Source of the DNA: Candidatus Anstonellales archaeon
Lineage (GTDB): Archaea; Micrarchaeota; Micrarchaeia; Anstonellales; CG1-02-47-40
Direction of reading: 5' to 3'
Assembly (NCBI GenBank): GCA_038869735.1
Contig: JAWCQO010000003.1
Location: 22,353 to 86,352 of the forward strand
DNA: 64,000 nt
Shown: one piece after another, positions 10,095-61,725 of the stretch
How positions within the stretch are numbered: position 1 is the stretch's first letter
How the letters are laid out: every line of letters begins with the position of its first letter
Made by a program: the position numbers and the translations under genes
Notes under the pieces: model-generated
Told to the model about the DNA's origin: nothing
Seen by the model: only the letters and a program-made list of their open reading frames with translations
Databases searched by the model: none

Positions 10095-10111
10095 CTACTT
10101 TTCGAGTTCAC

Positions 10112-11127: not shown

Positions 11128-11245
11128 TGCAGGAGGAGGGATTTGAACCCACGAAGGCCTAAGCCACGGGATTTCAAATTAAACTGTTTTTGTTACAGCA
11201 TTAATCTTAAGTCCCGCCCATTTGACCAGGCTCTGGTACTCCTGC
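11128..11245 (-). tRNA. trnL: tRNA-Leu(TAA) with 33-nt intron at 37/38 (intron 11173-11205); CCA not encoded
   Basis: Acceptor GCAGGAG/CTCCTGC + A73, D-loop AGCCTGGTCAAA, anticodon arm CGGGA-CTTAAGA-TCCCG after intron removal, long variable arm, GGTTCAAATCCC T-arm. Confidence 0.95.
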
Positions 11246-11268
11246 AGAAATAATTTTTGTAAAAAGAT

Positions 11269-11282
11269 GTTTATAGATTTTT
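11269..11282 (-). promoter_or_regulatory. BRE/TATA promoter of tRNA-Leu
   Basis: AAAAAT-CTATAAAC on minus strand, 24-37 nt upstream of G1. Confidence 0.55.
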
Positions 11283-11339
11283 ATATTGGTGTCTTTAGCG
11301 CTTTCAAATCAACTTCTCATAACTCAACCATTCGTTAGT

Positions 11340-12092: not shown

Positions 12093-12115
12093 ACAATGAA
12101 TTATCTGAGTAAAAA

Positions 12116-13825: not shown

Positions 13826-13827
13826 TA

Positions 13828-34574: not shown

Positions 34575-36030
34575 AAATATACCATCTGCTATCGCCAAAA
34601 ACTACTCTATCTTGCTCTTTCAGTAGTTTATTCTCTTCAGCCTTCTGCACCATATATTTAATCCCATATTTTTTTGCAGTTTCCATAACTTTTTGGTTAT
34701 TTTCATGTGGAGTTATAAAGCAAGTTCTACCCGTATAAAAGGAAATTTCAAGGCAGTCTTTTGACATTATCCTCTCTTCCATCCCAACATTTTTTTCAAT
34801 CCACGCAACTATACCTGGTTTTTCAGTAGGCCTGCCCAAAAATACCACAAACTGCAATAAGAGACAAATCAATACTATCATAATCAAAATAATCCTCCTT
34901 CTTTTATCCTCCTCCAAAATTCTTCTCGTTCCAAGAATAATAATAAGAAATGAGACTCCAAATAGAAAGGAGTAAGTGTAAGCTGCTGGAAAGTGCGCAG
35001 CTAGTGTAGCAACTATTAATCCTCCAGCAGAGAGACAGCAAAACAATTTTTCTCCTTCCTCAAGTTTCTTTTTCCACCTTGCCCGAATCCATAGTAAGGC
35101 CAGAACCAGTAGTACGATAGTCGTTACTGAAGAAAGAGAATTGTAATTTAAATTAGGATTATTAATAAAGTCAAAATTTAATCTAACCAAACCATCTTCT
35201 CCTCTGGAAAGGGGCAGTGGCAACACGCTTCTAACTATATTCTGAACCGTATTGCTTACAGCAGATTTAAAGTCAAACTCAAATAGGTTTGGAGGTTCAA
35301 GTTTTTCCATCTGTTCCCATTCTGTTATAAAAGGAACATACACAGACGCAGAGCTTGTAAAATTAAATAAAAATAAAATTATGAGAGCCAACAGAGACGA
35401 CGAGAAAAAAAGAAGGAATCTTCTAATATTCAGAAAAGCGCCGTCCTTCTCAAGAAGCATCATAATTCCAAAGCCGACAGCAAGTGCAAATCCCATCTGG
35501 TGAGTTAGAATTGCAATCCCACAAAAAATTCCAGAAATATCCTTCTTTTTGCAGATCCAGAAGTAAACAGACAAAAGAAAAATTACAGCAAAGAACATTC
35601 TACTCTCACCGCCAATAGAAAGCGAAATAAAAATAGGATTAATCGCTGCGAATAATCCAGCCAATATGGCAGTTGGTTCTCCATACATCTTTTTTGATAT
35701 TAAATACAAAATCCAAACAGCTATAGTCCCCGCAACTACATTAACGATTTGCATTACATAAAATGAGTTTCCAAAAAAATCCATAACCGCGCCGGCAATT
35801 ACTACAAATAATGGTGGCCTATAAGTTGCAGGAAAAGGTACTCTGACCTCACCCCAATAATTATCAACATAAGGGGAAGAAAACCCTAAACCAGACGCAA
35901 AATTTTTAGCTGCCAAAAAATGCCACATCTCGTCTCCTGACAGGGGAAGAGAAAACAAAAAGGAGAACACTAATCTTATAACAAATGCAAATAAGACTAC
36001 AAAGACAATTTTTTTGTTGATTGCAAGCAT
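34561..36030 (-). CDS. GT-C fold glycosyltransferase (GT39/ArnT-like)
   Basis: IRL...GDEMWH..AAKN, YRPPL, ESR; ATG at 36030 with GAGGAG SD. Confidence 0.8.
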   Translation of the reverse strand: MLAINKKIVFVVLFAFVIRLVFSFLFSLPLSGDEMWHFLAAKNFASGLGFSSPYVDNYWGEVRVPFPATYRPPLFVVIAGAVMDFFGNSFYVMQIVNVVAGTIAVWILYLISKKMYGEPTAILAGLFAAINPIFISLSIGGESRMFFAVIFLLSVYFWICKKKDISGIFCGIAILTHQMGFALAVGFGIMMLLEKDGAFLNIRRFLLFFSSSLLALIILFLFNFTSSASVYVPFITEWEQMEKLEPPNLFEFDFKSAVSNTVQNIVRSVLPLPLSRGEDGLVRLNFDFINNPNLNYNSLSSVTTIVLLVLALLWIRARWKKKLEEGEKLFCCLSAGGLIVATLAAHFPAAYTYSFLFGVSFLIIILGTRRILEEDKRRRIILIMIVLICLLLQFVVFLGRPTEKPGIVAWIEKNVGMEERIMSKDCLEISFYTGRTCFITPHENNQKVMETAKKYGIKYMVQKAEENKLLKEQDRVVFGDSRWYIFRID

Positions 36031-36109
36031 TCTCTCCTCTAAACCTATAAATACCTTAACTTTTAAACATCTAACCTTTATAATCAACCCTTACGTGGGT
36101 GATTCTTAC

Positions 36110-39728: not shown

Positions 39729-40463
39729 ATGAGGACAAAGCAAGCAGCAATCCTGGCAGGTGGCCTTGGAACACGCCTCAGGCCATTAACCCACAAAATA
39801 CCAAAGCCAATGATAGAAATTCACGGGAAGCCATTTTTGGAATACCAGCTCAAATATCTCAAAAAAGAAGGAATTAAAAAAGTTGTATTGCTAACCGGCT
39901 ACCTTCATGAGCAAATACGTTCATATTTTGGAGATTATTTTGAAGGTATAAAACTTACATATTCAATAGAGCAAAAACAGCTTGGAACAGCTGGTGCACT
40001 CAAAAAAGCAGAAAAGCTCCTTGAACAGACCTTCTTTGTTCTAAACGGAGACACCTATTTTCCGCTAAAACTTCATCGTCTTGAATCGTTCTTTCTCAAA
40101 AAGCCAAATGCAATAGGCGCTCTTTCTGCCTACTCTGGGAGAAGTAGAGTTGCTACCTACAACCTTCTAATTGAAAAATCTGGTTTGGTTCTTGCATATT
40201 CAAAAAATTCACCATCGACCAACTTTAATTCAGTGGATGCAGGAGCTTCCATCTTCAAAAAAGAGCTCTTGTCGTTTATAACCCACACTCCATGCTCGCT
40301 TGAAGATGAAATTTACCCAAAGCTTATTCACGACGGGTTGCTTTATGCAATCAAAACGTCTCTACGCTTCTATGATATAGGGACATTTAAGAGATTGGAC
40401 ATGGCAAAAAAATTCTTTAAAAGAAGTGTGATGGAACGTGATAATTTCAACAGCTCCCCTTAG
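39729..40463 (+). CDS. Sugar-1-phosphate nucleotidyltransferase, HddC-like (heptose-1-P guanylyltransferase by context)
   Basis: ILAGGLGTRLRP..PKPM, LGTAGAL, VLNGDTY, FYDIG; directly upstream of hddA/gmhA. Confidence 0.8.
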   Translation: MRTKQAAILAGGLGTRLRPLTHKIPKPMIEIHGKPFLEYQLKYLKKEGIKKVVLLTGYLHEQIRSYFGDYFEGIKLTYSIEQKQLGTAGALKKAEKLLEQTFFVLNGDTYFPLKLHRLESFFLKKPNAIGALSAYSGRSRVATYNLLIEKSGLVLAYSKNSPSTNFNSVDAGASIFKKELLSFITHTPCSLEDEIYPKLIHDGLLYAIKTSLRFYDIGTFKRLDMAKKFFKRSVMERDNFNSSP

Positions 40464-41427
40464 AATATCGCTCGGGGGAGGCGGAACGGACCTTCGTTCA
40501 TATTATTCGAAATTTGGAGGATTTGTATTAAGTGCAGCAATAAACAAATACGTTTATCTCCTTGTCCACAATCGATTTGACGGTATGATAAAAGCAAGCT
40601 ATGCAAAAATGGAAATTGTAGATTCTCCCAATAAGATTGAGCACCCTATAATTCGTGAAGCACTCAAAATGACTGGCATCAACAATTCAATTGAGATATT
40701 CTCTATGGCAGACATCCCTGCAAATTCAGGCCTTGGTTCCTCTTCCTCTTATACCGTCGCGCTCTTAAATGGTCTCTATGCTTTTAGAAAAAAGGAACTT
40801 ACTCCAGAAGAGCTTGCAGAAAAAGCATGCAAGTTAGAGATAGACATTCTTGGCCAGCCTATTGGAAAGCAAGACCAGTACATAGCTGCTTTTGGTAGTC
40901 TTTGTTCCTTTGAGTTTCTTCCTGATGAGTCGGTCAAAATTCAGAGACTCAACATCAGTACATCTACTCTGGAAGAGTTAGAAAAAAACCTTTGTCTTTT
41001 TTATACAGGCATCCAGCGAACCTCCACCGATATTCTATCCGAACAAAATAGCCAAACCGCAAAAAATGATCCGAAAGTACTTGCAAATCTTCACGAGATA
41101 AAAAACATCGGCTATGCACTTCGTGATTCAATACTTAGCGGAGACTTAGATTTTGTTGGTCGAGCCTTAGCTTTAAACTGGGAAAAAAAGCGGAATCTCT
41201 CAACAAAAATATCAAATGACCGCATAGATAAATGGTACGACATCGCCATCTCAGCAGGCGCCATGGGAGGAAAGCTTCTTGGGGCGGGAGGAGGCGGCTT
41301 TCTCCTTTTTTACTGTCATCAACAAAAACAGCCATCTCTTAAGAAAAGAATGAGAGCTGCAGGGCTTCGGGAGGTTAAGTTTAGTTTTTCAAGAATAGGG
41401 GCAAAACTATTTAGAAACTTCATATAA
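40438..41427 (+). CDS. hddA: GHMP kinase, heptose-7-phosphate 1-kinase-like
   Basis: APLRISLGGGGTD, P.NSGLGSSSS, GKQDQY, GGKLLGAGGGGF. Confidence 0.87.
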   Translation: MIISTAPLRISLGGGGTDLRSYYSKFGGFVLSAAINKYVYLLVHNRFDGMIKASYAKMEIVDSPNKIEHPIIREALKMTGINNSIEIFSMADIPANSGLGSSSSYTVALLNGLYAFRKKELTPEELAEKACKLEIDILGQPIGKQDQYIAAFGSLCSFEFLPDESVKIQRLNISTSTLEELEKNLCLFYTGIQRTSTDILSEQNSQTAKNDPKVLANLHEIKNIGYALRDSILSGDLDFVGRALALNWEKKRNLSTKISNDRIDKWYDIAISAGAMGGKLLGAGGGGFLLFYCHQQKQPSLKKRMRAAGLREVKFSFSRIGAKLFRNFI

Positions 41428-41438
41428 AACTAAATTAT

Positions 41439-42068
41439 ATGGCCATACCCTCAGATTCAGCTCAATTCAACTCAGAACAGTCTGCACTTCACTTCTTTAG
41501 CGAGCTAAAAAAAGCCCTAGATGGAGTTTCTCTATCAAGTTTGTTAGCAACTTGTGACGAGATTTTTAACTGTTGGAAGCGTGGGGGAGTCGTTTATGTG
41601 ATGGGGAATGGTGGGTCTGGCGCAACAGCAAGTCATTTTGTTTGCGATTTATCCAAATGGACAGCGTCAGAAGGAAAACTGCGTATAAAAGCGATATCCC
41701 TGAATGAAAACATGCCATTAATATCTGCAATCTCAAACGATATTGGATTTGATGCTGTCTATGTAGAACAGCTAAAGAACTATGACGTCGGAAAAAACGA
41801 TATCTTAATAGGATTCAGCACTCTTGGCTCAAGCCGCAGAGACAAACGTACTATCAGATCGAATAATCTTATAGAAGCACTAAAGTATGCAAAGTCAAAA
41901 GGGGCAAAAACTATTGGATTTATTGGCTTTGACGGTGGACTTATGAAAGATTTCTGTGACATTTCAATAATAGTTCCAGTAAATTCTGTGATTCATACTG
42001 AATCAGTTCACGTCTGTCTTTGTCATTTTATAGCACAAAATCTAAAACAAAGAATAAATAGTCTTTAG
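41439..42068 (+). CDS. gmhA: SIS-domain phosphoheptose isomerase-like, divergent
   Basis: GNGGSGATASHF, ISND.G.D, GF.GG, E..H...H; altered STSGNS motif with insertion. Confidence 0.75.
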   Translation: MAIPSDSAQFNSEQSALHFFSELKKALDGVSLSSLLATCDEIFNCWKRGGVVYVMGNGGSGATASHFVCDLSKWTASEGKLRIKAISLNENMPLISAISNDIGFDAVYVEQLKNYDVGKNDILIGFSTLGSSRRDKRTIRSNNLIEALKYAKSKGAKTIGFIGFDGGLMKDFCDISIIVPVNSVIHTESVHVCLCHFIAQNLKQRINSL

Positions 42069-49306: not shown

Positions 49307-50398
49307 ATGGTTCCATACATTGATTTAAAGACAGAATATTTATCAATAAAAAACGAGATAGAAAAAGCAATCTTTTCAGTTCTTGAGAATTCAAAGTTCG
49401 TACTTAGTGACAACGTCTCGAGTTTTGAGCGTGAGTTTTCGTCTTACATAGGAACAAAATATTGTGTTGGGACTGGCAACGGATTGGATGCACTTCGCTT
49501 TGCGCTCCTCTCTATTGGAATAAAAGCAGGCGATGAAGTCATCTGCGTTTCTAATTCTGCATTTGCCTCAGCGCTGTGTGTTTCAACAATAGGTGCCAAA
49601 CCAATCTTTGCAGATGTAGAATACGACACGCATAATATGGACCCCTCCGATATACGGAGAAGAATAACCAAAAAGACAAAAGCGATCGTCCCCGTTCATC
49701 TTTATGGACAAACCGCAGATATGGACCCTATACTGGAGATTGCAGATGAGCACAACCTCCTAGTGGTTGAGGATGCATGCCAAGCTCATGGAGCAGAGTA
49801 CAAAGGAAAAAAGGCCGGTTCAATTGGACAGGTAGGGTGCTTTTCGTTTTACCCTACAAAAAACCTTGGTTGTTATGGGGACGGAGGAGCTGTACTAACT
49901 AACGATTACGAGATTGCAGAAAAAGTAAAAATGTTACGCAATTATGGACAGATAAATCGCTATGAGCACGAGATAGAAGGTTTTAACTCACGTCTTGACG
50001 AGTTGCAAGCCGCAATCTTAAGGGTAAAACTTAGACACCTTGACAGGTGGAATGAAAAAAGAAGGTCGACTGCACGAAGATACAGCGAGCTTATAAGTCA
50101 CAAAGACATTACTTGTCCAAATGAAAAAGAATACGCAAAGCACGTGTACCACATATACGCTATAAAATCTGCAAAGCGCGATAGTCTTATGGAGCATCTT
50201 AAGCGTGCAGGAATTTCAACCATCATACATTACCCTATTCCTGCTCACCTCCAAAAAGCATATGCACATCTTGAGATTCCAAAAGGCTCACTTCCAGTTA
50301 CAGAGAAGGTCTGTTCAGAGGAGCTTTCACTTCCTATGCACCCATTCTTAACAGATGAGCAAATAGAAGAAGTCTCTTCAGCCATAAATTCTTTCTGA
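49307..50398 (+). CDS. DegT/DnrJ/EryC1/StrS PLP aminotransferase
   Basis: [45 protein letters not shown]. Confidence 0.95.
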
Positions 50399-50401
50399 GC
50401 G

Positions 50402-51538
50402 GTGAATTCGATGAAGATATCCATCCCACTTCGAGCCTTCCACAATTACGGTGGAATATCAAGGTGCATCTGGGAGCTTTCCAAAAATTATTCTCATTCA
50501 CACGAAGTCCACATTTTTTCAAGCCAGTTTGAATCCCCTCCATTTAAAGTATCCCACCATCCCGTTTTTTCGTTTTCGTCTCCCCCCTTCCTTGCTGAGC
50601 TTTCTTTTGCAATCAACTCTCAAAAGGCTTTGGATTCATTTTTTTCCGATATTGTGTATTCTCCAGCTACAGCATGCTATAAAGCAGATGTCTTTACTGC
50701 AAACTCTTGCCATAAGGCAGCAGTCGAGCTCTTTTCACAACAAAGAGGCCATATGTACTCTTTTTTAAAGGCGCTTGAACCAAAATCTCGCATTGTTATT
50801 GAAATAGAAAAACGCAATTATCAACAAGATAACTACCAAAAAATAACTGCCATATCAAAGCGCACAAAAGAGGAACTGATGCAATACTATAACGTTCCCG
50901 CAGATGACATAGTCGTGATCTATCCTGGAGTAGATACAGACATCTTTAAGCCATCGACAAAAAGTCGCATTTTGATACGCAAAAAATATTCCATTCCAGC
51001 CAACATCCCCATCCTTCTTTTTTGCGGTCATGAGTTCAAGAGAAAAGGCCTTGCTCAGCTAATAACCGCACTTGCAAAAGTAAAGCGAGACTGGAGGCTT
51101 ATAGTAATTGGTGGCGACAAAAAAGACTACTATGAAAATCTTGCTCGGAAACATAAGATTTTAGACAAAATACTATTCTTAGGCTTTGTTAAAAGCCTTG
51201 CAGACGTTTTCAATGGTTCTGATGTTTTTGTTTTTCCTACAACCTATGAACCTTATGGAATGGTAATAACAGAGGCACTATCCTCCGGCCTTCCAGTTGT
51301 TACTTCAAAAATTGCAGGAGCGGCTGAGCTTATGACTCATGGCAAAGAAGGCTTTCTTCTTGACGATCCCTTTGATATCTTAGGCATTTCAGAATACATA
51401 GACACCCTTCTAGCTGACGAGAAATTAAGAAAAAGAATGGGAAAATATGCCAGGAATACGGCTACAAAATATAACTGGAAGAAAATATCTATGCAAATGA
51501 TGAGCGTTTTTGAAAAAGTAATAAATGAAAAAAGGTGA
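50402..51538 (+). CDS. GT4 glycosyltransferase
   Basis: GG.SR, RKGL, PTTYEPYGMV..EALSSG.PV. Confidence 0.92.
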   Translation: MNSMKISIPLRAFHNYGGISRCIWELSKNYSHSHEVHIFSSQFESPPFKVSHHPVFSFSSPPFLAELSFAINSQKALDSFFSDIVYSPATACYKADVFTANSCHKAAVELFSQQRGHMYSFLKALEPKSRIVIEIEKRNYQQDNYQKITAISKRTKEELMQYYNVPADDIVVIYPGVDTDIFKPSTKSRILIRKKYSIPANIPILLFCGHEFKRKGLAQLITALAKVKRDWRLIVIGGDKKDYYENLARKHKILDKILFLGFVKSLADVFNGSDVFVFPTTYEPYGMVITEALSSGLPVVTSKIAGAAELMTHGKEGFLLDDPFDILGISEYIDTLLADEKLRKRMGKYARNTATKYNWKKISMQMMSVFEKVINEKR

Positions 51539-51547
51539 CAAAGGCTT

Positions 51548-52708
51548 TCAACCATTTGTCTTCTTCTTAATTAAATCTAGACATACCTCCTCGTATCTTT
51601 TCATAAATAAATCCCAGTTGAATCTTTTGTAGCAAAACTCTTTTCCCTCCCTTCCCATCTTCTTTGCCATCTCACTGTTGGTAGCAAGCAGTTCCATTTT
51701 TCTGCTCATTTCTTCTTCATTTTCAACTAGAAAACCAGTCTTTCCGTCGATTATGGTTTCTGTTGGTCCACCTTCCTTTACGGCGATGCAAGGTTTAAGA
51801 GAAGCTGCGCTCTCTACTGGAATAAGTCCAAAATCCTCATTTAGCGGGGTATAGAGAGTTGCCGTACAGTTTGCATACAACTCATAAATCTCACTGTCTT
51901 CGACATTTAGCTTTATCTCTCCCGCGTTGCCTAAGAGGTTTTTGATTTTCTCGTAGTATCTGACATGCTCTTCTCTGTTTTGCAGAAGCGAGCCGGCAAT
52001 TATTAACCTCCATTCAGGATGCTTTTCCCTAAATTTGAGAAATGCCTTAATTGCAAATTCATATCTTTTTTCAGGGGTAATCCTTGAAGGATAAAGAAAG
52101 TATGGTTCAAAGTTCTTACAACTGTATCTTTCAAATTGTACGCCAGAGTACAAAACTTCACTATCCCTATGAAGATACTTTCTAATTCTTTCCTTTACAG
52201 CTTTACTATTTGCAAACACGTGCTCTATTTTAGGAACAATCGAAGATTCGACCGACCTAAAAACAGCAGCGCTTCCTGCAAAAAGCATTTTTTGCCATAT
52301 ATCCCGTTGTCTCATCCTCCATTCATACAAATCGTAAATTTCTCGTGCAGGGGAGTGACAATACCAGACCATTGGAAAGTTATGTCTTCGTCCCCATTCG
52401 GAAGGAGAACTCGAAGCTCCAAAAACGTCAAATTCTCCTTTTTTTAATTTTAAATTGTAAAAGGTAACCCCCGAAGAAAAACCGTCATACAACCTTTTTG
52501 GGAGTACCTTGCTCCACAGAGGCCTCTTACCTTTAAGAGGCCTTATATCTACTTTTTCGAGTTCTGGAAAGGTAGATTCTCGGTTATATGAAATACAAAA
52601 GATAGTGGCATCAAATCTCTCAGCAATCCTCAACATGCATTTTTCAGCACCACCTTTAACTTCAAAAAAAGGGTGAAAGATTGCCAATGAAAACTTTTTA
52701 ACAGCCAT
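51548..52708 (-). CDS. GT4 glycosyltransferase, ALG2/WbaZ-like
   Basis: FHP...KGGAE, WYCHSP, SRI...KR, LYTPLNEDFGL.P.E, GGP.ET. Confidence 0.88.
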   Translation of the reverse strand: MAVKKFSLAIFHPFFEVKGGAEKCMLRIAERFDATIFCISYNRESTFPELEKVDIRPLKGKRPLWSKVLPKRLYDGFSSGVTFYNLKLKKGEFDVFGASSSPSEWGRRHNFPMVWYCHSPAREIYDLYEWRMRQRDIWQKMLFAGSAAVFRSVESSIVPKIEHVFANSKAVKERIRKYLHRDSEVLYSGVQFERYSCKNFEPYFLYPSRITPEKRYEFAIKAFLKFREKHPEWRLIIAGSLLQNREEHVRYYEKIKNLLGNAGEIKLNVEDSEIYELYANCTATLYTPLNEDFGLIPVESAASLKPCIAVKEGGPTETIIDGKTGFLVENEEEMSRKMELLATNSEMAKKMGREGKEFCYKRFNWDLFMKRYEEVCLDLIKKKTNG

Positions 52709-52725
52709 CTAAAAAACCTCATTCT

Positions 52726-53274
52726 CTAATTGCGGCCAGTAATTTTTTTTGCAGCTTCAAGTAGGCTACTTGCTTCCATATGGGGTTTTATCTTGTATGC
52801 TCCGTCCCTTCCTCCAAGACCTGTCCTAACAAGCACAGTGATGCATCCGGCATCGCGCCCCATCTTTATATCCTTGGTGCTATCGCCTATAACATATGAA
52901 TGTTTCAAGTCGATGTCAAATTCTCGCGCAGCATCTAAAATAAAGTGGGTTTTTGGTTTTCTACATTTGCAATTATCAGATTCAAGATGGAGACAATAAT
53001 AAATGCGTTGAACATTTATTCCATTGTTTTTAAATGTCTCTTCCATATGCTTATCAATTTCTTTAAGATTCTCCAATTTAACTTCCCCCTTTGGAACTCC
53101 TTGCTGGTTGCTTACAATAAAGAGAAGATAGCCGCATTGATAAAGCATCCTCATTGCTCGCAACGACCCTGGAATAAAGTAGAACTCATCTCGGCTTTTT
53201 ACATATCCTTCCCTATTCTCGTTTATGACACCATCCCTGTCAAGAAAAACAGCAACTCTTTTTTTTACTCTCAC
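52726..53274 (-). CDS. gmhB: Heptose-1,7-bisphosphate phosphatase (HAD, GmhB/HisB-N family)
   Basis: FLDRDGVIN, SNQ.G, C.H....C.CRKP zinc motif, IGD...D. Confidence 0.9.
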   Translation of the reverse strand: MRVKKRVAVFLDRDGVINENREGYVKSRDEFYFIPGSLRAMRMLYQCGYLLFIVSNQQGVPKGEVKLENLKEIDKHMEETFKNNGINVQRIYYCLHLESDNCKCRKPKTHFILDAAREFDIDLKHSYVIGDSTKDIKMGRDAGCITVLVRTGLGGRDGAYKIKPHMEASSLLEAAKKITGRN

Positions 53275-53844
53275 TCAGAGGTCACCCTCAACAATTTCGC
53301 ATATTACATGCCCTATAAATATATGCATTTCTTGAATTCTTTGTGTGTCAGTTGACGGGACATGTATGCACAGATCGCAGATTGTATCCATCTTTCCTTT
53401 CCTCTGACCAGTGAGACCTATACAAAAGCACCCGATTTCCTTTGCCTTTTCCAGACCTAAAATAACATTTTGTGACTCCCCTGACGTTGAGATTCCTATA
53501 ACTACATCTCCTTTTTTTGCCAGCCCTTCGAGTTGGCGAGAAAAGACATTGTCGTATCCAAAATCATTGGCAATAGCTGTAAGCGACGGAACATTTGACA
53601 CAAGAGCCATAGCCGGAAGAGCATGTCTATTTTTGGTAAATCTCCCTACAAATTCGGCTGCGATATGTTGAGCGTCGGAAGCACTTCCTCCATTTCCAAA
53701 TAAAAAAACCCTCCCGCCTTTTTTTATACGTTCTGATATTCTTTTTCCAGCTTCCATCACAACGTCAGAAAGTCCGTTGCTTTCTTGGCGGACAACAATA
53801 CTCTCCCGAAGCCTTTTTAGGTATAGGGTGTCTAAGTCTCCCAT
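53275..53844 (-). CDS. gmhA: Phosphoheptose isomerase (canonical)
   Basis: GNGGSASDAQHIAAE, TAIANDFG, FSRQ, ISTSG.S.N, RIQEMH...H. Confidence 0.93.
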   Translation of the reverse strand: MGDLDTLYLKRLRESIVVRQESNGLSDVVMEAGKRISERIKKGGRVFLFGNGGSASDAQHIAAEFVGRFTKNRHALPAMALVSNVPSLTAIANDFGYDNVFSRQLEGLAKKGDVVIGISTSGESQNVILGLEKAKEIGCFCIGLTGQRKGKMDTICDLCIHVPSTDTQRIQEMHIFIGHVICEIVEGDL

Positions 53845-54857
53845 GTTTCCAATCCCCCAAAGTCAAACCTTATCCATTTCGGCTCCAATCCAAGCCCCTT
53901 TAGTCTTTCTGCTACTTTATGCTCTTTGTTTGGTTCGCAATAAAAAAACATAAACCCTCCTCCACCAGCACCGGAGATTTTCCCTCCAAGTGCACCAGCC
54001 TTCTTCGCTTCTTCATATATCTTATCCACTCTCCTGTTCGTTATAAGCGGACTAAACATCTTTTTTATTTTCCAGCTCTCATCAAGAAGTTTTCCAAATT
54101 CGTTTAAATCCCCTTTCTCAAGAACCTTTCTCATTTCAAGTGCAGTTTCCTTTGCTTTATCCAGCGCCCATACCGTCTCACTTTTTCCATCCGAGTATCT
54201 CTTTATTTGGTCAGCTATTATATCTCCAGAAGACTTTCTTTTAGCTACATAAACCATAACAAGACTTTTCTCGAGTTCAAAAACATGCGCTCGGCTTATT
54301 CTCACCTTATTTACTCTTACTCTTCCTTCTCCAAATTCAAGAAAATTTATTCCCCCAAAAGCTGAAGCGTACTGATCTTGCCTCCCTCCAAAATTTCCAA
54401 GCTCTTCCCTTTCTAACTTTACAGCAAGTTCTGCGATCTCCTGCCTGCTTAATTCGACCCCATTCATACTGTTGAAAAGGCCTATAAGGGCAACAAACGC
54501 GCTTGCTGAACTACCAAGACCTGACTTCGGAGGAACATCGCTTCTAATGTATAACTCGACGCCCCTTTTCCCTCTATTCATTTTTCTTATTACTGCATTT
54601 ACAAGCTCCATTCTGCCATCCATTGCCATTTCATTCTTGTCAGGATGAAAAAGAAGAAGCTCTTGAGCGTATTCCCCATCTTCAATTACAATCCTTTCAT
54701 CCGTTCTAAAAGAACCCGCGGCGTAATTATACCTACTTATAGCTGCGTTTATTACACACCCGCCTTTCTCTTCAGCGTAGGGAGAAACGTCAGTTCCTCC
54801 ACCACCAAAACTTATTCTGACAGGTGCTCTACTTCTATAAGCAATCACGCAGTTCAC
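53832..54857 (-). CDS. hddA: Second heptose-7-phosphate kinase-like GHMP kinase (start may be GTG 54848)
   Basis: APVRISFGGGGTD, PPKSGLGSS, GGRQDQY, GGK.SGAGGGGF. Confidence 0.88.
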   Translation of the reverse strand: MNCVIAYRSRAPVRISFGGGGTDVSPYAEEKGGCVINAAISRYNYAAGSFRTDERIVIEDGEYAQELLLFHPDKNEMAMDGRMELVNAVIRKMNRGKRGVELYIRSDVPPKSGLGSSASAFVALIGLFNSMNGVELSRQEIAELAVKLEREELGNFGGRQDQYASAFGGINFLEFGEGRVRVNKVRISRAHVFELEKSLVMVYVAKRKSSGDIIADQIKRYSDGKSETVWALDKAKETALEMRKVLEKGDLNEFGKLLDESWKIKKMFSPLITNRRVDKIYEEAKKAGALGGKISGAGGGGFMFFYCEPNKEHKVAERLKGLGLEPKWIRFDFGGLETWET

Positions 54858-54859
54858 CG

Positions 54860-55507
54860 CTATGTCTTAACTGTTTTTTTCCAATCATCCAAAAACCTGG
54901 TTATTCCGTCGTCAGTCATCTTGTGCATGAATAGTTTTTCGAATACTTCGGGAGGGACAGTGCAAGCGTCGGCTCCTAACAGCGCTGCTTCTACCACGTG
55001 CATAGGATGTCTCACGCTTGCCACAAGGACTTGTGTCTCAAAATCGTAGTTTGAATAAATTCCCAATATTTCCTCAACAACCCTCATTCCGCTTTCACCC
55101 ATGTCATCCAGTCTTCCAACAAATGGGCTTACGTAAGTAGCACCAGCCTTTGCTGCTATAAGCGCCTGGGCTGCAGAAAACACAAGAGTCACATTTGTGT
55201 CTATCCCTTCACTTTGCAGCTTTTTGACAGCTTTCATCCCTTCAAGGCTCATCGGAACCTTTACCACTACGTTTTTTGCCCACGAGGCAAATAATCTTCC
55301 TTCTTTGACTATCTCCTCACTCTTCATCCCAATACCCTCTACACTAACCGGCCCCTTTACGATGGAGCAAATCTCCTTAACTGCCTTTTCGTGCTCAACA
55401 CCTGCCTTTGCAATCAGCGTCGGGTTTGTTGTAATTCCATCTACCAAACCACTGTTGGCAAGTTTTCTTATTTTTTCTATATCAGCAGTATCTAGAAATA
55501 TCCTCAT
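54860..55507 (-). CDS. tal: Transaldolase (small TalC/MipB type)
   Basis: FLDTA, GITTNP, Schiff-base K83 (VVKVP); E57 and F129 (SPFVGR) match transaldolase rather than FSA (Q/Y). Confidence 0.88.
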
Positions 55508-55553
55508 ACGCTACACACCTCCCTACATTCCTTCTTTTTCTGACAAACCAGCT

Positions 55554-56741
55554 TTACGACGCGCTCTTCATGCCTTCTTTTTTCTTAATCAAACTCTTAT
55601 AAACTTTGATATATTCTTTTGCAATGTGTTGCCACGAATACTTCTCCTCTGCTTTCTTTCTGTTTTCTTTTCCAATGCGCAAGCGAAGGTTTTCATCTAG
55701 AAGAAGCGTTTCTATTCCCTCTACCATCTCCTCTGGAGTTGAGAAAAGAATCGCATTCTTTCCATGCTCTAACAGCTCCTCTATCCAAGAAAGCTTTGTT
55801 GCTACAATAGGCTTTCCTGCACCCATATATTCTAATATTTTTATCGGGCAGAACCCGTACGGCTCAGCTGGGTTTAATGCTTCATGAAAAGGAGCAAGGC
55901 AAATATCTGCCATTCCCAGATACAGCGGCAGTTCTTTGTCAGCGATTCTTCCGGCAAAAATTACGTTTGACGGAGCTTTGCTCTTAATCCTTTCAATGTA
56001 GTCTATATATTTTTCAATTCCTCCAACAATCACAAACCTTGCCTCAGGAAATTCCTTTTCAATCCTCGTGGCAGAATAGACTATGCTATCAAGGCCATGT
56101 CTCGGGCCAAGGCCTCCCACAATCTCAATTACGGGTCCTGTGATATCAAGCGATTTTTTTAGCTTCTCAACAGCTCTCTTGCTACTCATACCAAATCTTT
56201 TGACATCCACACCGTTTGGGATAACATAAAAGTTCTTTTTTATTCCATGCCTTTCTAATGCCTTTTTGGTAACTTCTGATACACAACATATTGCATCGGC
56301 TCTTGAGAGAAAGAACTTTGCCCACAATATTCTGGGGTAGTACTGCACTGCCGGCTTCACTGCGTCTGTAAGTATTCCTCCCCTCCTCTCAAATGAGAAT
56401 GGATTAAAATTTATTTCAGCAACAAGCGGAACACCGGCTTTCTTTGCTGCAAAAGTTGAAAAGCCGCTCCCTGGGTCCATTCTCTTGTGGATTACATCTA
56501 TCCCCTCTTTCTTGCAGATTTCAACTATCTTCCAAATGGTATTATATGAAAGGAGGGGTCTGGGGAATTTCGTATTAACTGGATGCACCTTTGCGCCTCC
56601 GATGCTTTTTTCTGTGCTATCCGCAATGATATGTACCTCAACTCCAGCTTCGGTTAGAGCCTTTGCAAATTCCATGTGATGAGCTGCAGCTCCTTCAAAA
56701 CCAGGTATCTTAACCCATTGGGCTACAATAAGAACCTTCAT
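55554..56741 (-). CDS. GT4 glycosyltransferase
   Basis: G...H, PNGVD, CPIKILEYMGAG.P.V. Confidence 0.9.
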   Translation of the reverse strand: MKVLIVAQWVKIPGFEGAAAHHMEFAKALTEAGVEVHIIADSTEKSIGGAKVHPVNTKFPRPLLSYNTIWKIVEICKKEGIDVIHKRMDPGSGFSTFAAKKAGVPLVAEINFNPFSFERRGGILTDAVKPAVQYYPRILWAKFFLSRADAICCVSEVTKKALERHGIKKNFYVIPNGVDVKRFGMSSKRAVEKLKKSLDITGPVIEIVGGLGPRHGLDSIVYSATRIEKEFPEARFVIVGGIEKYIDYIERIKSKAPSNVIFAGRIADKELPLYLGMADICLAPFHEALNPAEPYGFCPIKILEYMGAGKPIVATKLSWIEELLEHGKNAILFSTPEEMVEGIETLLLDENLRLRIGKENRKKAEEKYSWQHIAKEYIKVYKSLIKKKEGMKSAS

Positions 56742-56813
56742 AATAGACTTAATTCAAAAAGATCAAATTTAAACCATTATCCTACAAATAAATCGGCATC
56801 TAAGGTGCTATTA

Positions 56814-58205
56814 ATGGCCAAATATTTTGGGACTAATGGCATACGTGGTCTTTACGACTTTCTGACTCCACATTTTGCGCTAAAGGCAGCTTTTGCTTTC
56901 TCACAGTGGACCAAAGAAAAAATCAGCAGTAGAGCAAAAAAAGTCAGGATTGGTATAGGGAGAGACATGCGCATTACTTCTCCATCTCTTCACTCCGCTT
57001 GCATAGCAGGTATTCTTGCTTCAGGTTCAGATGCAATCAACATGGGCTTAGTTTCCTCTCCAACAGCAGAATTAATGATTAAACGCCTCAATTTGTCCGG
57101 TCTAATAATAGTGACTGCTTCTCACAATCCGGCAGAATGGAATGCACTCAAATTTGTTGATTGGAACGGAGTAGCAATCTCAAAAGAGCGCGGAGCTGAA
57201 ATAGAATATTTGATAGACAAATACAACACGATTCCGGCTACTCCCCAATCTGGAAAAATGTTCGACTACAAAGCTGCAACAGAGCAGCACATCTCCCTTG
57301 CCTTGAAGAAAATAAACACTAAGTCTATACAAAAACGAACTCCTCACATAATAGTTGATTGTGGAAACGGTACTGCCGCCTTAATTGCACCACGGCTTTT
57401 TACTCTCCTTGGTTGCCAAGTACACACTATAAATGGAAAAATTGATGGGACCTTTCCAGGACGCCAATCCGAGCCGACCCAAGAAAACATTCGAGGCCTC
57501 CTTTTAGAGGTAAAAGAAAAGAAGGCAGATATTGGAATTGCATATGATGGAGATGCTGACAGAGTGATATTTGTAGATGAGAAGGGAATTTTTGTATCAG
57601 GTGACATGAGCTTTGCTCTTTCCGCAAGGCTTGCTTTGGAACAGAGCAGCTCAAAATCTAGTAAGGTTGTAGTTACGACAGTGGCTACAACCAACGCAGT
57701 CCGTGATATCTGCGTACAATATGGAGCCAAGCTCCACTACACCAAAGTTGGAGCGCCGTATCTTTCAGAAGAGACGTATAAGACAGCCGCCATTTCCGCA
57801 GGAGAGGAAGTTGGCGGCATCATCTGGCCATCATTCTCATTAGCAAAAGATGGAATTTTTGCTGCAGCAAAAATAATAGAGGCTATATGTGAGAAGGAGA
57901 CTACCCTTTCAGCACTTCTAAAACAGATTCCGATATATTATAGCTCAAAAACAAAAGTGCCCTGCAAGCCAGGAATAAACAAAACAAAAGTTATAGAAGA
58001 GATTGCTACGTACTTTCAGCTTCAACATTTCACTCCCAACACCCTCGATGGAGTTCGAATTGATTATAAAGATTCTTGGTCAATTATAAGGGCCTCTGGA
58101 ACCGAAAACTATTTTCGCGTGTTTGCAGAGGCAAAAAGCCAAAAAGAAGCAGATGAACTGATGGAAAGACACAAGAAATTACTTCAGGAATTAATCAACA
58201 AGTGA
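56814..58205 (+). CDS. Phosphohexomutase (PMM/PGM/GlmM family)
   Basis: Start ATG 56814 (YFGTNGIRG); TASHNP phosphoserine loop, DGDADR metal loop, GEE.GG, RASGTE. Confidence 0.93.
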   Translation: MAKYFGTNGIRGLYDFLTPHFALKAAFAFSQWTKEKISSRAKKVRIGIGRDMRITSPSLHSACIAGILASGSDAINMGLVSSPTAELMIKRLNLSGLIIVTASHNPAEWNALKFVDWNGVAISKERGAEIEYLIDKYNTIPATPQSGKMFDYKAATEQHISLALKKINTKSIQKRTPHIIVDCGNGTAALIAPRLFTLLGCQVHTINGKIDGTFPGRQSEPTQENIRGLLLEVKEKKADIGIAYDGDADRVIFVDEKGIFVSGDMSFALSARLALEQSSSKSSKVVVTTVATTNAVRDICVQYGAKLHYTKVGAPYLSEETYKTAAISAGEEVGGIIWPSFSLAKDGIFAAAKIIEAICEKETTLSALLKQIPIYYSSKTKVPCKPGINKTKVIEEIATYFQLQHFTPNTLDGVRIDYKDSWSIIRASGTENYFRVFAEAKSQKEADELMERHKKLLQELINK

Positions 58206-58216
58206 GTGGCGATTAT

Positions 58217-59359
58217 ATGAAAATAGCACTTGGTTTCGGCACAAGGGCCTGCTCAATAAAGATGGCTCCTCTTATTCGAGAATCTCAAAAAAGGGGACAC
58301 GAAACATTAATCCTTTACACCGGACAACATTACTCACCAAACCTCTACGAAGATCTTTTTGATGATTTGGAAATACCGCGACCGACTCTGGATATAATGG
58401 CAAGGGGTGAACCAGAAGAGCTTGGAGCAAAAATAATCCCTTCAACCGTTAGTTTTTGCAGGAGATACAAACCAGATGTCCTTCTTACTCATGGCGACAC
58501 ATTTAGTGCAATGTACCTCTCCATAGGAGCGGCATTAGCTCTAACTCCTGTTGGTCACGTAGAAGCTGGCTTGAGAACTTACTCCTGGGAACCATATCCC
58601 GAGCAAATATGTACAAAAACAGCAGACGCCTGCTCTTCGCTTTTTTTTGCTCCAACCGAAAAAAATAGGCAAGACCTACTTTCAGAGCATCAGCCTGATG
58701 AGAGAATTTTTGTTGTTGGGAATACTGTAGTTGATGCCGCACTTCAACATTCAGAGCTAGCAATGAAAAAGAGCAGGATTGTTGAGAAGTTCAAGCCAAA
58801 GCATCCGTTTGTTTTTTGGTCATGCCACCGAAAAGAAAATTTGCTTCACGAGCAGCGGATGAGGGGAATCTTTGAATCAATTTTAGAGCTTACTGATGTG
58901 CATTTTTTTTGCTCAGTCCTTCCAAGCACGCAGATAGCAGCAGAAAAATGGGGCTATGCAAAGAAGCTTGAAACGGCTTCCCATATATTTTGGGAACCTT
59001 GCTTGCCAAAGTATACTGACTCGCTTCGCCTAATGCTGGAGTCAGACCTTATACTAACTGACTCTGGAGGAATGCAGGAAGAAGCCGCCTCCCTACACAT
59101 ACCTTGTCTAACGTTGAGGTATGTTACTGATCGCCCAGAGTCCGTCCAAGCAGGCGCCAACAAATGCATCGGCTGTGAAAAAAAAACCATAAAAGAAGAG
59201 GTTAAAAACGTGCTTAAAAACAAGGAAATCGCTGACAGGATGCGCTCCGCCAAGAATCCATATGGAGACGGAAAAAGTAGCGAAAGAATAATAAGAATCA
59301 TTGAGCAATTTGAAGGCAGGATGGATAGATGGGAAAGCAAAATTGTGAACCAGAGCTGA
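58217..59359 (+). CDS. Second UDP-N-acetylhexosamine 2-epimerase-like protein, divergent
   Basis: TGQHY, HGDT, HVEAGLR, HR.EN, TDSGG.QEEA, NPYGDG; GTRAC and PEQICT deviate from GTRPE and PEE.NR. Confidence 0.85.
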   Translation: MKIALGFGTRACSIKMAPLIRESQKRGHETLILYTGQHYSPNLYEDLFDDLEIPRPTLDIMARGEPEELGAKIIPSTVSFCRRYKPDVLLTHGDTFSAMYLSIGAALALTPVGHVEAGLRTYSWEPYPEQICTKTADACSSLFFAPTEKNRQDLLSEHQPDERIFVVGNTVVDAALQHSELAMKKSRIVEKFKPKHPFVFWSCHRKENLLHEQRMRGIFESILELTDVHFFCSVLPSTQIAAEKWGYAKKLETASHIFWEPCLPKYTDSLRLMLESDLILTDSGGMQEEAASLHIPCLTLRYVTDRPESVQAGANKCIGCEKKTIKEEVKNVLKNKEIADRMRSAKNPYGDGKSSERIIRIIEQFEGRMDRWESKIVNQS

Positions 59360-59365
59360 TGTCTT

Positions 59366-60073
59366 ATGAAAAAAGCTTTTGTTTTGTGTGGAGGAAAAGG
59401 AACACGCCTTCGCCCTCTTACTTACGCAGTACCAAAGCCGATGCTTCCTGTTGGAAGAAAACCAATTCTTGAGTTCGTGCTTGCAAACCTCAAGCGAAAC
59501 GGCTTTAATGATGTTACTCTTGCTGTCGGATACCTCAAAGAGCATATAAAAAATTATTTTGGGGATGGCTCGAAGTTCGGCGTCAGAATAGACTATCTGG
59601 AAGAGGCGAGCGAATCGGGCACTGCAGGCTGTATCCTGCCGGCAAAAAGCAAGATAAAGGATACCTTTTTAGTCGTTATGGGGGACCACCTTACAAATGC
59701 AAATCTTCGTGAGTTATATGAACACCACAGGAAGAACAATCCTCTTGCAACCATAGGTCTAAAGCGCCAAGGGATGCCACTTGAATACGGCATTGCAAAA
59801 GTAAATGAAACGAACAACCAGATCCTATCCTTTGAAGAAAAACCTATACTAGAGAATCTTGTTAATGCAGGCATCTATGTATTTGAGCCAGAGATATTTG
59901 ACTATATCTCTCAAGGTTCTGACTTTGCTCGTGACGTTTTTCCTCTACTCTTAAAAAAGAAAAAGAAGCTCTTAGCCTACATTTTTGATGATTACTGGAT
60001 GGATATAGGAAGAATGGAAGACTATGAAAGCGTCCACCGAATAATGAGCATCCTTGAAATAACCAAAGAATAA
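59366..60073 (+). CDS. NDP-sugar synthase / sugar-1-phosphate nucleotidyltransferase (Mpg1/GCD1-like)
   Basis: LCGG.GTRLRPLT..PKP.LP, GTAG, MGD, EKP, NAGIY, W.DIG. Confidence 0.88.
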   Translation: MKKAFVLCGGKGTRLRPLTYAVPKPMLPVGRKPILEFVLANLKRNGFNDVTLAVGYLKEHIKNYFGDGSKFGVRIDYLEEASESGTAGCILPAKSKIKDTFLVVMGDHLTNANLRELYEHHRKNNPLATIGLKRQGMPLEYGIAKVNETNNQILSFEEKPILENLVNAGIYVFEPEIFDYISQGSDFARDVFPLLLKKKKKLLAYIFDDYWMDIGRMEDYESVHRIMSILEITKE

Positions 60074-60174
60074 AAAACGAAAAACGTTGAGCCTTCGTGC
60101 TATCAAAAGCTTTAAATACCTCCAATAATAGAAATTATACCCTCCATAATAAAAGTTATATATAATCAATTAGT

Positions 60175-61725
60175 GTGTATTATATGCAAGTCTACAGATT
60201 CGTTAAACCTGATAGAAAACTCCAGCTCGAGCAAGCGCATAAAGAGCAAAAATTATTTGAAAAGCAACTTTCTGTTAAGCTATCACACGTCGAAACAGCT
60301 GTGAGCTCCTACGACGATCTCTCCATTATTCTAAAAAAAATTGAGCTAATCCTCCCACATGTGATAATCCCATTGTTTAGCTCCCTCGAAGAAGTTGGAA
60401 AAAATCCATCTAAGCGCACTATATCAGATTTACTTGCAATTCTTAAGTCTACTAAAGAAGAAAGAAAAGTACTGTATGGACTCCTAAATGAACTTAATAC
60501 TACCTTTAGTAATCTCAGAATTTCCATAAAAAAACTTAATCAAACCGACTTCAACTGGGTTTCAAACGGCATCTTAGAAGAACTCCCTTCAGATTTAGAG
60601 ATCAAAATAAAAGAAATATACCGTCTAAGCGGCTTTGTAGAGACAATTGGCTCTTTATCAAACACCACTTCAAAAGTTCTTTCTACCTTTGACTCTCCTT
60701 TACCGCCAAACGAGATAAAAAGCATCAGAAAAAAATTAAACAATGATATGCTGAATCTCTCTAAATACAGTTCGATGCTTTCGCATATTATAAATTATTC
60801 ATTGAAAGGTCTAATTCAAGAAACTCTAAACGGCAATTATCAATTTTCACGATTTTTTATATCCGAATTTGAAAAAAAATATGAATGGTTATACTCTGAC
60901 CCAAGAATTCAGAATTTAATCTCTGAATACGAGAGAAGTAATGTAATAATTTATATGGACCTTGTATCAACACTTCTTGAGATAACAAAAGAACAATTCC
61001 TTAAAGAGAACTGGAAAAAACTCCTCTCCAAATTAGCTACCTCTAATATTCGAAATCCCACTTTTCAAAAAGTAAAGCCTCTAGTTGAACGTCCTCTCAT
61101 AACCAACCAAAACACCCCAGCCAAGAACCCCCCAGAAACCTCCACTGAACTTTTCTATCGCCACCTAATTGAAGCCACCCCAGCCAAGAACCCCCCAGAA
61201 ACCTCCACTGAACTTTTCTATCGCCACCTAATTGAAGCAGGAGCAACCCCCCAAGAAGCGCACGAATTACTTAAAATTAAGACTACGCTCAGAAGATTAA
61301 ATTTCTTCAGCCTAGAGGAAGCGGTTAAGTTTATTCGATCAAAACTTGAAAATGGGCTTTCCTTAAACCACGCTGCCCTGAAATTATCCAACCGAGATTC
61401 CTTTAGAACAAGAACAATGGATTTCCTAATCCCTATCTTAAAAGCTGGAGGTATAAGCGATTTTGCTTCTCGCGCGTTGGCCGATTCTTGCATCCATTGC
61501 GCTGCTTCCATCTCTCCTAAATCCATAACGCCGGACAAAATTAGACAGTTTGCCATTCAAAACTCAGAACTTATCGTTCGTGAAGCTTCAGAAAAATGCC
61601 CAGAGATAAACTTAAACGTTGAACATCATCATCGTCTTTTTGTGGATTCCCTTAGCCATAAACCCTCTCAATCGTCCTCTGAAAAAAACAATCAAACAAT
61701 TACATATACGCAGAAAATAAGATGA
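60175..61725 (+). CDS. Hypothetical all-alpha/coiled-coil protein with an exact internal 21-aa duplication (start may be ATG 60184)
   Basis: 516-aa ORF filling the gap between two sugar genes; no recognised motif. Confidence 0.7.
   Translation: MYYMQVYRFVKPDRKLQLEQAHKEQKLFEKQLSVKLSHVETAVSSYDDLSIILKKIELILPHVIIPLFSSLEEVGKNPSKRTISDLLAILKSTKEERKVLYGLLNELNTTFSNLRISIKKLNQTDFNWVSNGILEELPSDLEIKIKEIYRLSGFVETIGSLSNTTSKVLSTFDSPLPPNEIKSIRKKLNNDMLNLSKYSSMLSHIINYSLKGLIQETLNGNYQFSRFFISEFEKKYEWLYSDPRIQNLISEYERSNVIIYMDLVSTLLEITKEQFLKENWKKLLSKLATSNIRNPTFQKVKPLVERPLITNQNTPAKNPPETSTELFYRHLIEATPAKNPPETSTELFYRHLIEAGATPQEAHELLKIKTTLRRLNFFSLEEAVKFIRSKLENGLSLNHAALKLSNRDSFRTRTMDFLIPILKAGGISDFASRALADSCIHCAASISPKSITPDKIRQFAIQNSELIVREASEKCPEINLNVEHHHRLFVDSLSHKPSQSSSEKNNQTITYTQKIR
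61113..61238 (+). repeat. Perfect 63-nt tandem duplication (61113-61175, 61176-61238)
   Basis: Both units read CACCCCAGCCAAGAACCCCCCAGAAACCTCCACTGAACTTTTCTATCGCCACCTAATTGAAGC; encode TPAKNPPETSTELFYRHLIEA twice. Confidence 0.97.

Follow-up and report, generated by a model that had tools for sequence, protein, structure and literature searches.

A transaldolase gene within a heptose gene block

We describe here a six-gene unit in which a transaldolase gene (tal) stands directly in front of genes related to those for a heptose kinase, isomerase, and phosphatase. It lies in a stretch of 64,000 nucleotides (nt), referred to here as the window, from a contig (JAWCQO010000003.1) assigned to a hot-spring archaeon of the Candidatus Anstonellales. 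The six co-directional open reading frames (ORFs) are packed compactly on the minus strand, from 56741 to 51548, in the order GT4-tal-hddA-like kinase-gmhA-gmhB-GT4, where GT4 stands for a family 4 glycosyltransferase. In this order, the genes are as follows.

55554 to 56741, minus strand: GT4 glycosyltransferase, first gene of the unit and candidate activated-heptose transferase (Pfam Glyco_transf_4 and Glycos_transf_1)
54860 to 55507, minus strand: tal, short (subfamily 5) transaldolase of 215 amino acids (TIGR00875, PDB matches, residue signature)
53832 to 54857, minus strand: GHMP kinase of the HddA/WcbL type, 341 or 338 amino acids, with a GTG start at 54857 or 54848, respectively (NF049969, PDB matches)
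53275 to 53844, minus strand: GmhA-type SIS isomerase of 189 amino acids (TIGR00441, PDB matches, active-site residues)
52726 to 53274, minus strand: GmhB-type HAD-IIIA phosphatase of 182 amino acids (PRK08942, TIGR01656, TIGR01662, PDB matches)
51548 to 52708, minus strand: GT4 glycosyltransferase, last gene of the unit and candidate activated-heptose transferase (Pfam Glycos_transf_1 and Glyco_transf_4)

The first GT4 gene and tal are 46 nt apart, with GGGAGGTG located within the gap, while tal and the kinase gene are separated by 2 to 11 nt, depending on which kinase start is used. The kinase gene overlaps gmhA by 13 nt, the GTG start codon of gmhB directly follows the TGA stop codon of gmhA, and 17 nt lie between gmhB and the second GT4 gene. 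A sequence scan revealed no terminator-like hairpin within the six-gene unit. A scan for sigma-70 promoters gave no excess over shuffled sequences and is not meaningful for an archaeal host. The identical gene order is present in three NCBI metagenome-assembled genomes (MAGs) and in several Logan contigs from hot-spring metagenomes, and a 42-kb contig from an independent run matches positions 50000 to 58300 with zero differences. Since the order is reproduced in independent assemblies, the arrangement is real and not an assembly artifact. A first-pass annotation of this DNA had described tal, hddA, gmhA, and gmhB as contiguous, co-oriented, and located between GT4 genes, and the ORF coordinates match that description exactly.

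Identity of the aldolase

The tal product scores 299.7 bits against TIGR00875, which is above the cut-off of 245.95, and 204.7 bits against Pfam TAL_FSA. The solved structures nearest to it are proven or annotated transaldolases, the top PDB match being the transaldolase (Tal) of Thermotoga maritima (1vpx, 2e-83); the Thermoplasma acidophilum transaldolase TacTAL (3s0c) matches at 2.6e-71. Overall, solved transaldolases range from 2e-83 to 1e-62, while the fructose-6-phosphate aldolase (FSA) of Escherichia coli is found at 1e-32. The window Tal shares 61% amino acid identity with the Tal protein of M. jannaschii. In an alignment that included E. coli FsaA (taken from NC_000913.3), residue D6 and the Schiff-base lysine K83 are invariant, while the window Tal and all other aligned Tals have E57, S127, and F129 in the columns occupied by Q, A, and Y in FsaA. 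The glutamate and phenylalanine are the signature on which the first-pass annotation had relied in calling the enzyme a true transaldolase, and E57 and F129 are indeed present where FsaA has Q and Y. Judged by these residues and by the ranking of structures, the aldolase belongs with the true short transaldolases and not with the FSAs.

Kinase, isomerase, and phosphatase

The best NCBIfam family for the kinase, which contains the Pfam domains GHMP_kinases_N and GHMP_kinases_C, is HddA (NF049969; 238 bits, cut-off 600), followed by fucokinase at 126 bits. Its PDB matches 3k85 (4e-63), WcbL 4usk/4ut4 (6e-60), and 4n3o (1.5e-55) are all heptose kinases, and, of the kinase relatives listed in the search, many bear the JGI label heptose-7-phosphate kinase. 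For the isomerase, the GmhA model TIGR00441 is far ahead of any other family (193.4 bits, cut-off 209.45), and the matching structures are 1tk9 (5e-52) and 2xbl (4e-51). Its DAQH motif (at position 60), E64, STSG motif (positions 119 to 122), Q171, and H179 are identical in the GmhA proteins of C. jejuni and B. pseudomallei; of these, H60, E64, S119-T120-S121, Q171, and H179 are presumably the catalytic or phosphate-binding residues of those structures. The phosphatase is slightly below the cut-off of the GmhB model PRK08942 (173.7 bits, cut-off 178) and above those of TIGR01656 (141 bits, cut-off 84) and TIGR01662 (110.6 bits, cut-off 44.6); against the alpha-specific model NF050049, it reaches 117 bits (cut-off 250). 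It matches the GmhB structures 3l8h, 4pnh, and 2gmw and has both the DxD nucleophile motif (D12-R-D14) and the zinc loop (C94-L-H96 and C102-K-C104) typical of the GmhB/HisB-N subfamily. On these profiles and motifs, the three proteins are clear members of heptose-enzyme families with intact catalytic motifs. Together with the transaldolase, the identities that had been proposed for the four genes thus hold at the family level, as judged by profiles, PDB matches, and motifs.

Position of tal in related genomes

The closest named relatives of the window Tal are Micrarchaeia proteins with 60 to 69% identity. In the Micrarchaeia loci L091/L092, L093, and L095/L096, tal closes an rpe-tktN-tktC-tal operon of the pentose phosphate pathway (PPP), the neighborhood of which is conserved, with RIO1, eIF-1A, and DUF1858, followed by AAA_18, PadR, and purF. 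The survey also suggests that at least 15 of the nearest Tal matches are co-located with a TktC match on one contig. The Tals encoded in the Micrarchaeia operon are 61 to 69% identical to the window Tal, whereas in the window and at L087 and L088, the loci of the two closest relatives of the window kinase, tal stands apart from rpe and tkt and has a GT4 gene on one side and the heptose kinase gene on the other. At L087, the order is GT4-tal-kinase-SIS-HAD-GT4, with all six genes 62 to 78% identical to those of the window and with the same flanks; at L088, it is GT4-tal-kinase-SIS-GT4, with identities of 50 to 64%. Orthologues of both bracketing genes are in place, with 71% (L087) and 50% (L088) identity for the first GT4 and 72% and 64% identity, respectively, for the last. 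The kinases that accompany the tal block in the window clade are only 57 to 69% identical; a further kinase fragment with 67% identity (L178) is cut at a contig end. A slightly more remote relative, L179, has the order GT4-GT4-HddC-HddA-GmhA-GmhB and no tal, so that the slot before the kinase gene is occupied by tal in the window clade and by HddC in L179.

In a neighbor-joining tree of Tals, the window protein is nested among the Micrarchaeia PPP-operon Tals, and the heptose-linked Tals occupy three places (the window with L087, L088, and L056, a locus described below). This suggests that the linkage arose repeatedly and not through the spread of one specialized gene. The nesting of its Tal also makes the host probably a micrarchaeon (DPANN). 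The earlier proposal that a central-metabolism gene was recruited into the heptose genes agrees with these comparisons, since tal ends the rpe-tktN-tktC-tal operon in the nearest Micrarchaeia and belongs to the heptose block in the window clade.

Pentose phosphate and heptose genes in other archaea

Clusters of HddA, GmhA, and GmhB genes occur commonly among archaeal MAGs, those of DPANN included, and a search with the kinase gave at least 7,988 proteins with E values of 1e-20 or lower among 8,000 candidates scored. A kinase-anchored scan of the genome collection gave 80 loci, each from a different archaeal or bacterial species. The common arrangement among them, found at dozens of loci, is kinase-gmhA-gmhB, often with an HddC-like gene. 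Two of these loci, both archaeal, combine heptose with PPP genes. At L056, from a Bathyarchaeia MAG (5640 to 13132), PfkB-tktN-rpe-tktC-tal-hddA-gmhA-gmhB, a gene for a GDP-mannose-4,6-dehydratase-like protein, and a GT2 gene lie on one strand, with a gap of approximately 215 nt between tal and hddA; the dehydratase-like gene hints at a 6-deoxy-heptose product. At L008, from an Aenigmatarchaeota MAG, the order is hddA-gmhA-gmhB-[HddC::TktN]-rpiB-rpe-tktC-tal, with successive genes overlapping. The fusion gene (L008:12257-13741), seen in one assembly, is an in-frame ORF of 494 amino acids that joins an HddC-like domain (residues 2 to 226) to a transketolase N-terminal domain (residues 236 to 489). 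In addition, a Tal-anchored metagenome scan, in which most of the Tals were distant (60% identity or less) and lay on short contigs and which has little bearing on the window clade, yielded a 2.7-kb contig with tktC-tal-gmhA (L112). Our literature search turned up no description of heptose operons that contain PPP genes or are fused to them.

Fusions within the heptose pathway itself were also seen. L089:11589-12878 encodes a 429-amino-acid fusion of a GmhB-like HAD domain with an HddC-like NTP_transferase domain, in a canonical operon without tal, and protein P0026 is a 556-amino-acid SIS::GHMP-kinase fusion.

Candidate nucleotidyltransferases and a second heptose module

Two candidate nucleotidyltransferases are encoded 4 kb and 13 kb from the unit. 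The first is ntpB; the second, ntpA, belongs to a further set of heptose-like genes termed module A, the tal-linked set being module B.

59366 to 60073, plus strand: ntpB, sugar-1-phosphate nucleotidyltransferase and HddC candidate (ManC-like, 170 bits; HddC, 139.6 bits, cut-off 300)
39729 to 42068, plus strand: module A, consisting of HddC-like (39729 to 40463), HddA-like (40438 to 41427), and GmhA-like (41439 to 42068) genes (NCBIfam)

The ntpB gene is the last of a divergent GlmM-like/WecB/NTP-transferase unit. Its product is 35 to 37% identical to the operon-embedded HddC-like proteins of L179 and L008, an orthologue with 71% identity is present in L087, and ntpB-like genes are located divergently upstream of the kinase gene in L007 to L011 and L089, a position that recurs in several DPANN loci. 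An attempt to choose the cognate enzyme by similarity failed, as the products of ntpA (39729) and ntpB are both 35 to 39% identical to operon-embedded HddC-like proteins.

The module A proteins score 138.9 (HddC), 188.4 (HddA), and 98.2 (GmhA) bits, every one below its cut-off, and share 33 to 36% identity with their module B counterparts. Module A has neither a phosphatase gene nor a tal gene. An insertion of approximately 10 residues is present in its SIS protein, which in a pairwise alignment has Asp and Glu at the positions of the conserved GmhA residues Glu64 and Gln171, respectively. Since sisA-like paralogues resembling it adjoin a canonical gmhA gene in the Chloroflexota loci L053 and L071, this protein may have a different substrate.

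Proposed pathway and the evidence for it

We propose, with a probability that we put at roughly 0.6, that the unit is a transaldolase-linked module for the synthesis of a nucleoside diphosphate (NDP)-heptose within the surface-glycan island of this archaeon. From the gene order, family membership, and motifs observed here, the ancestral location of tal, the persistence of the block in relatives, and the PPP-heptose linkages that occur independently elsewhere, we infer the enzymatic steps, the nucleotide used, the acceptor, and the benefit of the linkage as follows. Tal would transfer a dihydroxyacetone unit from fructose-6-phosphate onto erythrose-4-phosphate, giving sedoheptulose-7-phosphate, which GmhA would convert to D-glycero-D-manno-heptose-7-phosphate. 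The GHMP kinase would then phosphorylate C1, with the alpha-anomer expected by analogy with HddA and WcbL, and GmhB would remove the 7-phosphate to leave heptose-1-phosphate. A nucleotidyltransferase from elsewhere in the island (59366 to 60073 or 39729 to 40463) would form the NDP-heptose, with guanosine diphosphate (GDP) as the nucleotide expected by analogy, and the two bracketing, co-conserved GT4 enzymes would probably transfer the heptose onto a lipid-linked glycan. The tal gene itself would be the ordinary PPP gene of the lineage, relocated from the end of the rpe-tktN-tktC-tal operon into the heptose unit, and we propose that this move placed the precursor-making step under co-expression with the steps that consume the precursor.

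Transaldolase requires erythrose-4-phosphate, which is normally a product of transketolase, and transketolase alone can make sedoheptulose-7-phosphate from pentose phosphates. No transketolase, rpe, or rpi gene was detected in the 64-kb window, where PPP probes (tblastn) found tal alone, as they did at L087 and L088. The first-pass annotation had called the operon self-sufficient and had suggested checking the genome for transketolase. The term is not supported, since the unit contains no nucleotidyltransferase gene and depends on erythrose-4-phosphate, and no transketolase was present in the window or traced among the best 120 TktC relatives. Approximately 20 to 40% of DPANN genomes have been reported to contain transketolase and transaldolase (PMC8407392). 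With a transketolase present, the placement of tal would be a matter of co-regulation.

Several observations weigh against the proposed module. The supply of substrate presents a dilemma: if transketolase is present, sedoheptulose-7-phosphate can be made without Tal, and if it is absent, Tal would need another source of erythrose-4-phosphate. In this regard, no TktC could be traced to the window organism among the best 120 relatives of the Micrarchaeial TktC from L095. The kinase, GmhA, and GmhB each score below the NCBIfam equivalog cut-off, and no NTP-transferase gene lies between 51548 and 56741. The one metatranscriptome from the same study gave no contig over positions 50000 to 61000, and the neighbor-joining tree of Tals has no bootstrap support. 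Furthermore, the linkage is infrequent. A PPP gene lies within 10 kb at just 2 of the 80 kinase loci (L056 and L008), PPP-heptose linkage was seen at 1 of 80 Tal loci, and the overall frequency is about 1 to 3% of surveyed loci; by a rough estimate, approximately 0.5 PPP-flanked heptose clusters per 80 loci would be expected by chance, so that the 2 observed are, as raw counts, weak evidence. The case for a functional linkage is therefore built not on counts but on a block that diverged relatives have kept, on genes that are closely packed or overlap, and on the fusion. A synteny survey in archaea had been proposed alongside the first-pass reading; in the scans made here, the linkage recurs in unrelated archaea but is a minority arrangement, with 2 of the 80 species loci in the genome scan.

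Alternative explanations

The alternative that survives best holds that the heptose genes are a standard set and that tal is the sole housekeeping PPP transaldolase, stranded beside them with no dedicated supply, either through the break-up of a PPP-heptose super-operon like that of L056 or through rearrangement. We consider this positional relic unlikely, though it retains an appreciable chance of being correct. It would account for a Tal that is typical of its lineage and nested among the PPP-operon Tals, for the single Tal cluster found on a 547-kb contig, and for the low frequency of linkage, and L056 could be seen as an intermediate architecture, in which the gap of approximately 215 nt before hddA could house a separate promoter. 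It accounts less well for the position of tal only 2 to 11 nt from the kinase gene and behind a GT4 gene, which has been kept among relatives whose kinases have diverged to 57 to 69% identity, or for the occurrence of the linkage in at least three separate Tal lineages. The overlapping genes and the HddC::TktN fusion of L008 would likewise be hard to explain without selection for co-expression.

To our knowledge, beyond the lincosamide octose pathway, no cluster that pairs a transaldolase with homologues of GmhA, HddA, GmhB, and HddC has been characterized. In that pathway, the transaldolase LmbR, the isomerase LmbN, the kinase LmbP, the phosphatase LmbK, and the guanylyltransferase LmbO give rise to GDP-octose (PMC4351081). 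It is conceivable that, in a clade without transketolase, an LmbR-like Tal adds a C3 unit to ribose-5-phosphate to give octulose-8-phosphate, which the GmhA-, HddA-, and GmhB-like enzymes would process via octose-1-phosphate toward an NDP-octose destined for a glycan of the cell surface, leaving the ordinary heptose to module A. The gene content of the LmbR/N/P/K/O type is matched in the window to the extent that a transaldolase is clustered with isomerase, kinase, and phosphatase homologues. Ribose-5-phosphate is universally available, while a transketolase, needed for erythrose-4-phosphate, could not be traced to this organism, and the two kinase/isomerase sets, with their 33 to 36% identity, would be redundant if both were heptose making. 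For these reasons, we keep an octose product as an alternative, albeit one to which we assign a very low probability. The window Tal does not belong to a specialized clade but is nested among PPP-operon Tals, and its GmhA-type neighbor has the same active-site residues as sedoheptulose-7-phosphate isomerases. In addition, L008, L056, and L112 link transketolase, rpe, or rpiB to heptose genes; these enzymes would have no role in an LmbR-type route, and their presence in the related super-operons favors a supply of sedoheptulose-7-phosphate over an octose pathway of the lincomycin type. The first-pass interpretation had left the lincosamide cluster unconsidered; of its own claims, the gene identities and the capture of tal stand, while self-sufficiency, the connection to AglB, and the extent of novelty do not stand as put forward.

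Lastly, the reading as an FSA, a name borne by the NCBI TIGR00875 model and by many relatives, would give an enzyme that interconverts fructose-6-phosphate with dihydroxyacetone and glyceraldehyde-3-phosphate, with no tie to sedoheptulose-7-phosphate supply, but this reading, including the FSA-only outcome against which the first-pass annotation had cautioned, is made very unlikely by E57, S127, and F129 in place of the Q, A, and Y of FsaA, a single Phe-to-Tyr change being known to turn TalB into an FSA-like aldolase (PMC3962226), and by the wide lead of transaldolases in the PDB ranking.

Relation to known systems and significance

The proposed module, with its probable heptose product, is most readily compared with the GmhA-HddA-GmhB-HddC pathway. 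The same three families are present in the usual kinase-isomerase-phosphatase order among glycosyltransferases, with motifs kept, and the window relative L179 carries a full HddC-HddA-GmhA-GmhB operon. The window differs in that tal occupies the HddC slot, the nucleotidyltransferase is encoded elsewhere, the scores are under the equivalog cut-offs, and the host is an archaeon. In the lincosamide pathway, a transaldolase is likewise clustered with GmhA, HddA, and GmhB homologues, and the five enzyme families are the same (PMC4351081). That cluster, compared here by gene content, belongs to actinomycete secondary metabolism and makes a C8 sugar, whereas the window Tal is a lineage-typical PPP enzyme.

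Heptose in archaeal glycans has a precedent in the N-glycan of Thermoplasma acidophilum (PMC11407970), although this organism belongs to another phylum; the window likewise encodes an AglB with a WWDYG motif in its island (see below). Furthermore, work by Tang et al. (2024) on enzymes across kingdoms, as summarized in PMC11461863, describes archaea with functional enzymes that make NDP-beta-D-manno-heptose from sedoheptulose-7-phosphate. Those enzymes comprise kinases of the HldE/HldA type and HENase nucleotidyltransferases and yield the beta-anomer, whereas the window kinase is of the GHMP HddA type, for which the alpha-anomer is expected. The summary does not mention a linkage to the PPP. 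The pathway, its enzymes, and archaeal heptose glycans are thus already known, and there is neither a new enzyme family nor new chemistry here. The first-pass annotation had not been aware of any description of a heptose-bearing DPANN surface; heptose clusters are common in archaea and the Thermoplasma glycan is known, but no account of an embedding among PPP genes came up in our literature search. The main interest is the wider PPP-heptose linkage that emerges from the comparison, a finding that is modest, recurring, and rare.

If the proposed module is real, some archaea wire the supply of sedoheptulose-7-phosphate to its withdrawal for surface-glycan heptose, and the wiring takes the form of a whole PPP operon abutting heptose genes, of an HddC::TktN fusion, or, as in the window, of tal alone. 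This would be a clean case of a central-metabolism gene drawn into a glycan operon and would allow uncultured DPANN archaea with heptose-bearing surfaces to be recognized by a genomic marker. A further question that it would raise is whether archaea with small genomes keep the non-oxidative PPP partly for glycan synthesis. Should the much less probable octose product be correct, such a pathway would have no precedent outside the antibiotics of actinomycetes or in any archaeal glycan.

Glycosylation island and other neighboring genes

The island in the window holds AglB, two Wzx-like flippases, three PMT_2 proteins, a cis-prenyltransferase, many GT2 and GT4 enzymes, and nucleotide-sugar enzymes. 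The oligosaccharyltransferase gene is the following.

18989 to 22078, plus strand: AglB/STT3 oligosaccharyltransferase (Pfam STT3, 31.7 bits; AglB_core-like, 26.4 bits, cut-off 27; WWDYG at residues 760 to 764)

AglB is encoded 31 kb from the heptose unit, and it is a possible user of a heptose-bearing lipid-linked glycan on grounds of proximity. The earlier suggestion that tal was captured to feed heptose into an AglB-dependent glycan is hence consistent with the comparative data as far as the capture is concerned, while the link to AglB is one of proximity only. The PMT_2-family membrane glycosyltransferases (GT-C, dolichyl-phosphate-mannose type) are encoded at 17408 to 18934, 32240 to 33745, and 34561 to 36087. 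With three such enzymes in the island of AglB, the sugars may also end up on non-Asn acceptors or in lipid-linked intermediates.

Upstream of the glycosylation island are two sets of T2SSE ATPase and T2SSF genes (type IV pilus/archaellum-like; 4791 to 8228 and 12116 to 15243), as well as genes for a KaiC-like ATPase (10112 to 10897) and a PAC2 protein (11340 to 12092). On the other side of the heptose unit, the ORF at 60175 to 61725 contains a 63-bp tandem duplication (61113 to 61238; 2.0 copies, 100% match), which repeats 21 amino acids (…PAKNPPETSTELFYRHLIEA…) in a 516-amino-acid protein without a Pfam hit. Just upstream of the duplication, at 59909 to 60642, the Logan contigs of run X1 break and the depth falls from approximately 9.7 to 5.4.

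Other genes lie beyond the block in the related loci. In the closest relative, at L087:14431-16317, genes for an N6_N4 methyltransferase and a Tsp45I-like endonuclease are located directly downstream of GT4-tal-kinase-gmhA-gmhB-GT4, and the window has further glycosyltransferase genes at the position of this restriction-modification pair. Downstream of the block in L088 (7376 to 12830) are genes for a HAD hydrolase, a 528-amino-acid double NTP_transferase protein, a class II aldolase, and a 701-amino-acid PRK-family kinase, which may form a further sugar-phosphate pathway.

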